From IMG/VR virus record IMGVR_UViG_3300042196_000418: a DNA stretch of 64,000 nucleotides; one strand, written 5' to 3'. The notes beneath the pieces are model-generated. The model did no database searches. It was not told where the DNA came from and saw nothing but the letters and a program-made list of their open reading frames with translations. The DNA is from a virus (taxonomy: Duplodnaviria > Caudoviricetes). Below, piece after piece: positions 12,566 to 14,704 of the stretch (positions within the stretch are counted from its first letter, which is position 1; each line of letters opens with the position of its first letter). Made by a program: the position numbers and the translations under genes.

Positions 12566-14704
12566 ATGAGCGACGACAAGAAGCGTGATCGTGCGTTGCA
12601 GCGCCGCGTGCGCGAACGCCAGGCCAAAACCGGCGAGAGCTATCAAACCGCGTGGCGACAGCTGACGGCTGACGCGACGCAGGATCCCTCCAGCAAGCCC
12701 GAAACTCCCAAGACCGCTCGCCGTGTCCCTTTACCAATGGGCACCGCCATCAAAGTCCTGCCTGGCCAAGTTGTGCTGATCACGGTGCGGCCTCAACTCA
12801 AGTCGTTTTGGCCCGAGCGTCTTTTAATCAAGAACGCTGATCGTTGGAACGTCAAGCGTCTCGCTGTCGAGCATCGGAACTCGTTACTTGAAGCTGGACC
12901 TCGTACGTCCACAACCTTCTCGCTAGACACGTGGCACCCACTCACTGCGCGAGAAGTTCACTGCGGCGAGGACGTCAGCGTAGAGGTGACTTACACCGGC
13001 CTCAACAAGGATGGCGAATCCTTCGAGGCCGCCTTGTTCGGCTGGGAGGGCGATCCTCCTGCAAAGTCAACGGATCGCGACAACGCGGATCGCTCGGAAC
13101 GTGTTTCAGAACGCGCAGAATCTTCAAGCGTGCCTGGAGCGAACAGTCCAGTCATCGAGCTGCCGTTGATCGTCACGTCCCCTACTCTCTTCGTAGATCG
13201 CCTCACGATCACGGACGCGAAAGACTGGATCGTGCATGACATCCGAACGCGCGGGAAATCAATCTTCGTGCAGAGTGGAGATCTGCCCGGGGAGATGTTC
13301 TCGGAGTCCGCACATGTAATCTTGGAGCCACTGACCGCGGATGACCGTGTCCTGGTCCTGGCGACCTATGTCGGAAAGGACACGACCGCACGTCTCGTGG
13401 TCACGCTATCGGGCACGACAGCGCCTCCGAACAGCCCACGCGTGTGCAGCTACTTCTTGCCAATGTCTACAGGCATTCCAATCTTGCCCGCACAAAGCGC
13501 GCAGATCACGGGTCGCCCCCAGTCGAACTTTCTGCCAGAGCGCCTGGTCATCGCTGACCCAGACGACTGGATCATCAACGACATCAAGGCAGGAATTCGC
13601 AGTCAGCTCGCCGCCGTTGGTGACATTCCAGGCCAAGCTTTCTCTAGCCGCACCGTCGGCGGTCACGTGACGCTCGATCCCGTACGAAGAAGCCAGGACT
13701 TCATCGTAGTCGTGACGCGCGGAGAAGACTGCAAGAAGGGCGCAAGTTTCTTCTGTGGTGTTCAAGGACGTGTGTTGCAGCACAACGAGCACGAACGCCA
13801 AACAGAAACCGACGAGCAGCTAGTTACCGCGACCGAGATCAACGCTGAGGCTAACACCATCGCCCGACGCCTCGTCCTTCCGCTCCATCTTCCTCATGTG
13901 CCGCCGCACCAACCGACACGCGTGACTGCTCGTACGGACAACGCCATGGACATTCACAGCATTCACATATCGAGCGCCGGTACGAACGGTGGCGCCGCCG
14001 CTTGGGTCGTGAACGACATCGAGATCGATGGTCGATCGCAGCTCACGCTCAAAGATCTGCCCGGCGCCTTGTTTGGGGGCAACGGCGTCGCGGCTGCGAA
14101 ACACGCAACGGCCAAGCTTTCGCTGGAAGGCTTCGATCCCGTAGAGCGAAATCGCGAACTGGCCCTTATCGTGACCTATGTTGGTCCCAATCCTGAGGGG
14201 GCAGTCTTCTACGCCGCTGCCGTGGGCTTCAAGCCGCCGCAACGGCCCACCATTGTACCCATCGCATCAAAGTCTCCACTTCCACCGATAACGGAAGCAA
14301 CGATCACGGCACGTATTCAAAACGCGCCCTTCCAGATGACCAGGATCGAGATCGACGCCGGACACACCCCAGGTGGAGCGGCTGACTGGATCGTTAAAGA
14401 TCTACGCATCAACGGGAGAACCCAATTCGCGCAGTCTGGTGACATCCCAGGAGATATGTTCGCGAGCAGCGCGATCGACACCTTCGTCAAGATGGAGGCT
14501 TGCGAAGCTGGCAATGCGATCGAGATTGACGTGACCTATATCGGGCTGAATGAAAGCGGCGCTATTTTTTCCGCACGGCTCGAAGGCGTCGTCACGCGAG
14601 GCGACTACAACGTCCCGCCACCAGACTTGAACGTGCTCGTTGAGACATCCGGTCAGGGTCCTGGAGAATTCGTCGTCGCGACATGCAACTGGCGCGCGCC
14701 GTAA
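12566..14704 (+). CDS. Protein with five tandem copies of the putative shell (jelly-roll-like) domain
   Basis: Five segments align by eye with the conserved domain of 40073-44432 (e.g. LPMSTGIPILPAQSAQITGRPQ; GGAADWIVKD..QFAQSGDIPGDMF..VTYIGLNESGA); short N-terminal helix RERQAKTGESYQTA. Confidence 0.85.
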   Translation: MSDDKKRDRALQRRVRERQAKTGESYQTAWRQLTADATQDPSSKPETPKTARRVPLPMGTAIKVLPGQVVLITVRPQLKSFWPERLLIKNADRWNVKRLAVEHRNSLLEAGPRTSTTFSLDTWHPLTAREVHCGEDVSVEVTYTGLNKDGESFEAALFGWEGDPPAKSTDRDNADRSERVSERAESSSVPGANSPVIELPLIVTSPTLFVDRLTITDAKDWIVHDIRTRGKSIFVQSGDLPGEMFSESAHVILEPLTADDRVLVLATYVGKDTTARLVVTLSGTTAPPNSPRVCSYFLPMSTGIPILPAQSAQITGRPQSNFLPERLVIADPDDWIINDIKAGIRSQLAAVGDIPGQAFSSRTVGGHVTLDPVRRSQDFIVVVTRGEDCKKGASFFCGVQGRVLQHNEHERQTETDEQLVTATEINAEANTIARRLVLPLHLPHVPPHQPTRVTARTDNAMDIHSIHISSAGTNGGAAAWVVNDIEIDGRSQLTLKDLPGALFGGNGVAAAKHATAKLSLEGFDPVERNRELALIVTYVGPNPEGAVFYAAAVGFKPPQRPTIVPIASKSPLPPITEATITARIQNAPFQMTRIEIDAGHTPGGAADWIVKDLRINGRTQFAQSGDIPGDMFASSAIDTFVKMEACEAGNAIEIDVTYIGLNESGAIFSARLEGVVTRGDYNVPPPDLNVLVETSGQGPGEFVVATCNWRAP

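Follow-up and report, generated by a model that had tools for sequence, protein, structure and literature searches.

What would a virus do with a single protein chain that holds five copies of a domain which its other genes carry only once? The question is raised by a 712-amino acid (aa) open reading frame (ORF; 12566-14704, + strand) in a 64,000-nucleotide stretch of viral DNA (Duplodnaviria; Caudoviricetes; IMG/VR virus record IMGVR_UViG_3300042196_000418), hereafter the window. An earlier note on this sequence had described five successive diverged copies of a shell-protein domain behind a short basic helix, lying away from an array of single-domain genes, and had proposed either a fused pseudo-pentamer or a decoy. 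Here we find that the ORF, termed P0001 in our lists of relatives, is a conserved real gene, with 14 full-length orthologues at 48-75% identity and many invariant columns, and that its product corresponds to two lobes, of three and two domains, which most relatives encode separately. We tentatively favour the reading that the protein belongs to the jelly-roll structural family of the element, as a specialised member present in few copies.

Five diverged copies of a jelly-roll domain in one chain

A domain profile (hidden Markov model, HMM) was built from nine copies in the window and then run on the window itself, where it identified 13 copies in nine genes: five in the 712-aa ORF, five in the array and three in single-domain genes. 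The domain, a jelly roll of about 115 aa, terminates each of the five array genes. Together with an AlphaFold2 model, annotated below with its predicted local distance difference test (pLDDT) values, the profile divides the ORF as follows:

12566-12685 (+): N-terminal basic helical hairpin, aa 1-40, with predicted helices at aa 3-22 and 26-37
12713-13048 (+): jelly-roll D1, aa 50-161; HMM E 1.2e-38; pLDDT >90
13094-13423 (+): jelly-roll D2, aa 177-286; HMM E 2.4e-29
13445-13777 (+): jelly-roll D3, end of lobe 1, aa 294-404; HMM E 2.3e-42
13790-13861 (+): flexible inter-lobe linker, aa 409-432; pLDDT <50; site of the two-gene split in relatives
13862-14236 (+): jelly-roll D4, GGAADW-loop subtype, aa 433-557; HMM E 1.3e-34
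14240-14596 (+): jelly-roll D5, aa 559-677; HMM E 1.4e-45; the copy nearest the array domain
14597-14704 (+): C-terminal beta-hairpin tail and stop codon, aa 678-712; strands at aa 688-694 and 701-705

The architecture first described for this protein is thus borne out by five independent profile matches (E 2e-29 to 1e-45) and by the predicted N-terminal hairpin. The start codon lies 5 nt 3' of a GAGAGG Shine-Dalgarno-like site. D1-D5 share 19-34% pairwise identity and 31-45% identity with the array domain, placing the latter near the family consensus. In a tblastn comparison against the window, the array C-terminal domain was matched by D5 at 49-50% identity (E 1e-28), by D3 at 45%, D2 at 37-39%, D4 at 36% and D1 at 33%; the nearest free copies were s1 for D5 (40%), s2 for D3 (40%) and s3 for D1 (34%). 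Two sequence subtypes of the domain coexist in the window, with and without a GGAADW loop, and the alignment places the loop of D4 in the array domain too. P0001 was unmatched in Pfam, PHROGs and PADLOC, its hairpin (aa 1-50) in NCBIfam, and sequence searches of the PDB, run by domain profile as well as by hairpin, returned nothing meaningful. Neither a signal peptide nor a membrane helix was found in the protein.

The five-domain gene and the array also differ in codon usage. GC content at third codon positions (GC3) is 0.66 in the former, 0.81-0.86 in the array genes and 0.72-0.83 in most neighbours; the array genes are the highest of the window and the five-domain gene is among the lowest. 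This contrast is consistent with very different expression levels.

Predicted lobes and fold neighbours

The AlphaFold2 model, computed from a 69-sequence alignment, has a mean pLDDT of 88.5 and a predicted template modelling (pTM) score of 0.58, and comprises the N-terminal helical hairpin, five beta domains and a C-terminal beta-hairpin. Its sole long low-confidence stretch is aa 409-432 (24 residues), between D3 and D4. From this disorder and the pTM, summary numbers on which our reading of the lobes is based, the chain would form two rigid lobes (D1-D3, and D4-D5 with the tail) whose mutual placement is left unpredicted. A complex prediction of D1-3 against D4-5 with alignments, run without controls, gave interaction prediction scores from aligned errors (ipSAE) of 0.01 and 0.00, which speak neither for nor against binding.

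Fold comparison was carried out by VIA-align, on a Foldseek-seeded list and in an unbiased scan of 48,161 chains. In both lists D2-D3 (residues 178-407) superpose as one unit on two-jelly-roll proteins, with the highest score for PHM (Z 9.3, root-mean-square deviation (rmsd) 4.4, 211 residues aligned), followed by the STIV capsid protein (Z 7.8), PRD1/PR772 P3 (7.2-7.6), DUF2961/GH172 (7.3), PM2 P2 (6.7), PNGase F-like proteins (6.5) and PBCV-1 (6.4). These pair matches are middling overall (Z 6.4-9.3, rmsd 4.4-6.5, about 200-228 residues aligned), and correspond exactly to the four double-jelly-roll families defined in PMC8812541. D4-D5, as a pair, gave no VIA-align alignment to double-jelly-roll proteins.

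Taken singly, the domains of P0001 matched capsid proteins of HHIV-2 (Z 7.3-7.8), SPV1 (7.0) and HCIV-1 (6.7), among them D3 with the HHIV-2 capsid protein (6h82_b; Z 7.8, rmsd 4.1, 112 residues aligned) and D4 with SPV1 (6oj0_T; Z 7.0, rmsd 3.5, 116 aligned). The model of the array domain (pLDDT 89) likewise found the SPV1 capsid protein as its top VIA-align match (Z 7.6, rmsd 3.4, 118 aligned), within 1 Z of GOLD, PHM, enterotoxin and protease P domains. Foldseek searches yielded nothing significant for the array domain (best template modelling (TM) score 0.57, to SPV1, E 0.23) and low-TM multi-domain matches only for the whole P0001 model, and in the ESM Atlas a single domain retrieved clusters of its own family first (TM 0.73) and then Capsid_N, a capsid domain of nucleocytoplasmic large DNA viruses (TM 0.56-0.59). 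On these models the domain adopts a jelly-roll fold, and in three libraries the named folds nearest to it are capsid jelly rolls, in agreement with the original description of the domain as shell-type; the middling scores support a shared fold, not homology.

Relatives split into three and two domains, and the case for a ring

A word-indexed search identified 85 homologues of P0001, among them the 14 full-length five-domain proteins, whose contigs reach 302 kb. The remainder are mostly halves, consisting either of the hairpin with D1-3 (about 410 aa) or of the hairpin with D4-5 and the tail (about 335-420 aa), and in these split relatives both lobes carry their own hairpin and their own leader. 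The C-terminal beta-hairpin tail is kept in all D4-D5-type relatives. On a 502-kb contig (L006) the two halves are adjacent and co-directional, D4-5 first and D1-3 second. In a gene tree computed on the D1-3 part, P0001 and P0002 (support 99) nest among split forms, outside the main fused clade (support 100), implying at least two fusion or fission events.

In ten relatives, in addition, an ATPase separates the hairpin from the repeats, which may be D1-3, D4-5 or all five domains. Pfam labels these inserts KaiC-like, and NCBIfam assigned the two that were examined with it to the RadA/Sms core (TIGR00416; E 5e-48 and 1e-49). They cover about 46-284 of the 454 profile positions and lack both the zinc finger and the Lon-like domain. 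KNRFG is retained in all ten inserts. In six (P0022, P0037, P0045, P0049, P0059 and P0061) the Walker A lysine is replaced by arginine (GSGR[TA]), again with KNRFG retained, and these may be pseudo-ATPase or switch-like forms. Of the inserts on D1-3-bearing proteins, the four placed on the tree lie scattered across it. As far as sequence can tell, a RadA-type core has been inserted repeatedly behind the hairpin, on either lobe. P0001 itself has no RecA-like ATPase core, the RadA-type domain being found only in relatives such as P0008, P0022 and P0069.

Recurrent lobe fusion, together with ATPase insertion on either lobe, suggests that the lobes act together. This bears on the single-chain vertex capsomer proposed in the earlier note, here widened to a 3+2 heterodimer, in which the five domains would form a closed pseudo-five-fold ring at the vertex of a shell made by the array protein. 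The domain total is five, fused or split, in the loci examined, the fusions and insertions suggest one working unit, the low GC3 fits a low copy number, and known penton proteins have jelly-roll folds. Against a ring stand the pTM of 0.58 and the disordered 24-residue linker between two confidently predicted lobes, in place of a confident ring, as well as the double-jelly-roll arrangement of D2-D3, since double-jelly-roll pairing builds six-fold, not five-fold, capsomers. That most relatives are split speaks further against a fused pseudo-pentamer, and the count of five is itself blurred by the possibility that one genome holds, beside its fused gene, a further gene for D1-3 (P0011 and P0038, each listed with a longest contig of 302,537 bp, perhaps not the same one). 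We therefore regard a vertex ring as distinctly unlikely.

A conserved basic hairpin and a structured leader

The hairpin (aa 3-37) is the most conserved part of the protein, with at least 90% identity across relatives at freely variable synonymous sites. This argues for selection on the peptide rather than on the DNA, and rules out gene conversion as the cause of the conservation. Among proteins of <391 aa, the hairpin was found only on jelly-roll proteins of this family or their fragments, and none of 43 short hairpin carriers was a hairpin-plus-ATPase-only protein. A weaker hairpin-like motif, K-K-R-[VI]-R-x-R-x-x-K-T-G-E-S-Y, heads unrelated Myxococcota proteins (L014 (G001), L015 and L017), whose bodies comprise FHA, TPR-like and SAM-dependent methyltransferase domains. 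A scan of GTDB with family-specific patterns also returned only hairpin-like motifs, in two metagenome-assembled genomes of Kofleriaceae. The hairpin-like motif may accordingly be a portable N-terminal module.

Upstream of the gene lies a second conserved element:

12404-12565 (+): structured 5' leader, about 170 nt, 8 helices; covariation-supported

Over 14 loci the leader shows a mean column identity of 84%, compared with only about 55% identity among the encoded proteins. Both paralogues of L006 are among the 14 loci, and the leader lies upstream of every hairpin-bearing gene in L001, L004, L006, L033, L043-L045, L048, L053, L055, L063 and L066; a metagenome scan with 19-mers returned 49 loci, of which 10 were true leaders. 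RNAalifold predicts 47 pairs in 8 helices, with 98.2% of cells paired. Eight pairs show compensatory changes, a number equalled by none of 500 shuffles and reaching at most 1 in slid controls. Helix 7 (12505-12509 with 12556-12560) is predicted to pair a CUCUC tract with the GAGAGG ribosome-binding site, and helix 6 (12494-12500 with 12564-12571) to pair with the AUG. The leader precedes every family member looked at, i.e. the hairpin-bearing genes, and had no match in Rfam 15 at E up to 1 (12245-12620). With its solid covariation support, we propose it as a new candidate translational control element specific to hairpin-bearing genes, which would throttle synthesis by occluding the ribosome-binding site and start codon; autoregulation via the arginine-rich hairpin is speculation on our part.

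Two other readings of this region were rejected. An upstream ORF (MKGMT...) was dismissed on account of indels that shift the frame between loci while the nucleotides stay conserved, and a sigma-54 promoter at the TTGGCAC of the leader start on account of its GG-to-GC spacing of 13, not 10. A GGGTA-N6-TACCC enhancer pattern occurs once in the window, at 47886.

Together, the hairpin, the leader and the RadA-type inserts raise the main alternative to a structural subunit, a nucleic-acid-associated scaffold or regulator outside the virion, whose hairpin and RadA-type core would act on DNA or RNA in the infected cell (in recombination, replication or translational control) and whose jelly-roll repeats would stand in for the RadA Lon-like ring domain as an oligomerisation or partner-binding platform. 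The insertion of the RadA/Sms core falls exactly at the join of hairpin and repeats, all ten inserts keep KNRFG, and the absence of the RadA zinc finger and Lon-like domain implies that other parts occupy their positions in these relatives. The elaborate leader control and low GC3 would suit a dosage-sensitive regulator, and the gene neighbourhood in relatives is enzymatic. Set against this, most family members, P0001 included, lack an ATPase, 6 of the 10 inserts have lost the Walker A lysine, and the hairpin is not found with an ATPase alone among its short carriers. The repeats are, moreover, homologous to the abundant array domain, with capsid jelly rolls as their nearest named folds. We regard such a scaffold as possible, though doubtful.

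Single-domain paralogues, gene surroundings and a segment inverted in two other assemblies

The remaining domain copies of the window are found in the following genes:

14793-15392 (-): single-domain paralogue s1, convergent with the five-domain gene; 199 aa, helical N-terminus and one jelly roll; domain at 14799-15185
22198-22698 (+): single-domain gene; domain at 22270-22689 by profile
40073-44609 (-): five-gene array; domain copies within 40079-44093; variable low-complexity N-termini and near-identical C-terminal jelly rolls
53407-54006 (+): single-domain gene; domain at 53665-54000 by profile

L004 carries an orthologue of s1 (44% full-length identity) at a distance of about 9 kb from its own five-domain gene. 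GenBank phages were searched with the array at the DNA level and with the domain by tblastn, without a match in either case.

Just downstream of the array is a transglutaminase-like or Cys-protease-like gene (37910-38506, -), which shares 37% identity (E 3e-19) with the protease-like gene of a small Myxococcota-associated cluster (L011, 3487-3942). Its presence beside jelly-roll genes in both the large element and the small cluster suggests a conserved jelly-roll-plus-protease module. The five-domain gene is flanked by a sugar-nucleotide and glycosylation toolkit (1-12244, -; 19923-20903, -; 54521-57816, +), which includes FkbM and TylF methyltransferases, GT1 and GT2 transferases, GDP-mannose dehydratase/epimerase-like proteins, mannose-1-P guanylyltransferase and phosphomannomutase. 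Scans of about 45 ORFs of the window against Pfam or PHROGs revealed no FtsK-HerA-type packaging ATPase; the element as a whole exceeds 170 kb.

The position of the five-domain gene relative to the array depends on the assembly. An identical gene is present on a 171.8-kb JGI contig (Ga0395805_0000100) and on one Logan contig (L012, L013), and in both of these assemblies (99.7-100% identity) window position 15828 joins 50903 in reverse, running down to 44775. The 35-kb segment 15829-50903, which contains a membrane-protein operon, the five-gene array and a MerR gene, is thus inverted there, bringing the array into the same direction as the five-domain gene, about 7.5 kb downstream. The initial observation that the gene lies on the opposite strand and away from the array consequently holds for the window and not for the two other assemblies. 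The junctions share 1 bp only and lack an inverted repeat. ORFs run across both junctions in either arrangement, such that those at 15435-16337 (-) and 50340-51101 (+) swap halves while their frames stay open. The difference may represent a real inversion or a chimeric assembly.

Breadth of the family and its Myxococcota clusters

The domain profile recovered 2,136 clusters (50% identity representatives) at E ≤1e-3 and 754 at ≤1e-10. Among 229 fetched proteins, 84, 54, 69, 7 and 15 contained one, two, three, four and five domains, respectively, and none of 74 family members matched Pfam. A scan of IMG/VR with the family alignment found no relatives. Also identified were proteins with an N-terminal membrane helix followed by one to four jelly rolls (P0087, P0088, P0089, P0095, P0142, P0145, P0155 and P0221), in which, unlike the compact five-domain protein, the jelly rolls are spaced by long Pro/Ala/Thr linkers.

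Such membrane-anchored homologues might point to a fibre, adhesin or lectin-like function, in which the jelly rolls would bind carbohydrates or receptors, as in the C-terminal knobs of collagen-like phage fibres. Consistent with this, neighbours in BFVD include collagen-repeat and tail-fibre proteins of uncultured tailed phages (TM 0.52-0.58), the fold lists contain matches resembling carbohydrate-binding modules (CBMs), and the large glycosylation island adjoins the gene. P0001, for its part, has a basic hairpin of cytoplasmic type at its N-terminus in place of a signal peptide or membrane helix, as well as short structured linkers and rigid lobes, and RadA-type inserts make no sense in a fibre. 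The array, furthermore, conserves its C-terminal domain and varies its N-terminus, the reverse of receptor-binding fibres. A fibre-like role is therefore very unlikely.

In cellular genomes the domain is rare, occurring in 2 of 401 Myxococcota genomes and each time in a small virus-like cluster. The gene order of the cluster comprises an acidic and Arg-rich arm with one domain, a Cys-protease-like gene, a large Ala-rich protein and a shared 230-aa beta protein, to which the larger cluster (L010) adds cell-wall enzymes. The basic helix of the small-cluster proteins is collinear with the hairpin in the alignment. Profiles for the HK97 capsid (PF05065) and Terminase_6N (PF03237) matched nothing in these two genomes, both of which are incomplete. 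Taken together, these findings describe a large, hitherto undescribed jelly-roll family that is carried by uncultured virus-like elements of about 170-500 kb, probably of Myxococcota.

This distribution also bears on the second proposal of the earlier note, a dominant-negative capsid mimic that interferes with related viruses, which could amount to superinfection exclusion by spoiling the assembly of competitors. The divergence of the copies from a structural domain, the poorly adapted codons and a tight control of translation would suit such a decoy. No defence-island context was found. The protein is, however, encoded by a core gene of its virus-like lineage, conserved at 48-75% identity under strong purifying selection, no PADLOC defence-system model matches its jelly-roll part, and among the 401 Myxococcota genomes the domain occurs in no setting other than the two small virus-like clusters. 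We consider a decoy highly implausible.

A proposed specialised subunit of a jelly-roll structural system

In the reading that we tentatively favour, P0001 would serve the jelly-roll structural system of the element as a specialised subunit in low copy number, its two lobes docking onto or into a lattice of abundant single-domain paralogues, the array proteins. The basic hairpin would face inward and hold nucleic acid, by analogy with the arginine-rich arm of simple jelly-roll capsid proteins, and in relatives would carry a RadA-like DNA-handling module or motor.

A number of observations weigh against this reading. All fold matches are middling (Z ≤9.3) and tied with cellular GOLD domains, protease P domains and CBMs, and many family members are membrane-anchored beads on a string with long Pro/Ala linkers. 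In relatives the gene lies among enzymes (SLT, GNAT, YgjP-like, HD and VWA), with no structural genes adjoining, and the loss of the Walker A lysine from 6 of 10 inserts sits poorly with a DNA-handling module. Given the similar motif on unrelated Myxococcota proteins, the hairpin need not bind nucleic acid. That family members form part of a particle is a prediction from genes and models. Atlas labels of the family clusters are mostly Viruses/Uroviricota, and should the elements prove to be tailed phages whose heads are of the HK97 type, the capsid would be something other than the jelly-roll lattice.

A bolder version of the subunit reading, which we think unlikely, would make P0001, as one chain or as a 3+2 pair, a special capsomer in a new lineage of large bacterial viruses with a shell of small vertical jelly rolls. 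It would fill five of six, or five, positions of one lattice site and tether the genome by its arginine-rich arm or, in relatives, by a RadA-derived DNA motor. Were this the case, it would be the first capsomer made of five jelly rolls, and a RecA/RadA-type motor would for the first time be seen joined to a jelly-roll shell.

The family is of interest under either outcome, with >2,000 clusters at 50% identity, outside Pfam, PHROGs and PADLOC models, in elements of up to 500 kb. Should the jelly-roll system form the shell, no other bacterial virus of that build would come near its carriers in size; should it not, it would represent a new and abundant structural or adaptor system of huge phages.

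Comparison with known systems

The nearest counterparts of the single domain are the vertical single-jelly-roll capsid proteins of SPV1 (6oj0), HHIV-2 (6h82) and HCIV-1 (6h9c), with which it shares a small eight-stranded jelly roll of about 115-135 residues and which are its best PDB matches (Z 7.6, 7.8 and 6.9, respectively, over 111-118 residues). There is no sequence similarity to these proteins, the Z-scores are at a level that VIA-align calls common, and the present chain has five domains instead of one. Archaeal viruses of this type use two capsid-protein types, and two domain subtypes are likewise found here.

Among double-jelly-roll proteins (PRD1 P3, STIV B345, PM2 P2 and PBCV-1 Vp54, and also PHM, PNGase F and DUF2961/GH172), the likeness is confined to D2-D3, which superpose as a two-domain unit; P0001 has three further jelly rolls, of which D4-D5 do not align as a pair. 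As for longer chains, the earlier note knew of no five-fold fusion, and none surfaced in the searches made here. The largest multi-jelly-roll chain returned was PDB 4ind, which we take to be the STIV turret protein C381. This entry, titled 'The Triple Jelly Roll Fold and Turret Assembly in an Archaeal Virus', appeared in both hit lists (Z 6.2-6.7), but has three domains instead of five, superposes poorly (rmsd 10-17) and lacks a basic arm as well as split or ATPase variants.

With bacterial RadA/Sms (TIGR00416), the comparison concerns the relatives, which hold its RecA-like core and KNRFG (E 5e-48 to 1e-49). It differs in that P0001 carries no ATPase, and that the inserts lack the zinc finger and Lon-like domain and, in 6 of 10 cases, have arginine for the Walker A lysine.

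For the leader, lambda N-boxB and the MS2 coat-operator provide precedents, the former of an arginine-rich peptide paired with an RNA hairpin and the latter of a translational operator bound by a coat protein. Similarly, the arginine-rich N-terminal helix studied here is always accompanied by a structured leader predicted to occlude the start site. Unlike these systems, the leader has eight helices, not one hairpin, and the peptide motif occurs on unrelated cellular proteins too.

Finally, the nepovirus coat protein, with three jelly rolls per chain in a pseudo-T=3 shell, is a precedent for fusing capsid jelly rolls that are separate in relatives, and parallels the alternation of 3+2 and five-domain states in this family, although it belongs to an RNA plant virus, is unrelated in sequence, and its fused domains fill quasi-equivalent lattice positions. 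Fusion of jelly-roll domains is also the accepted route from single- to double-jelly-roll capsid proteins. With one- to five-domain states side by side in one family, and repeated fusion or fission of defined lobes, the proteins described here offer a natural series in which the origins of multi-domain capsomers may be followed.

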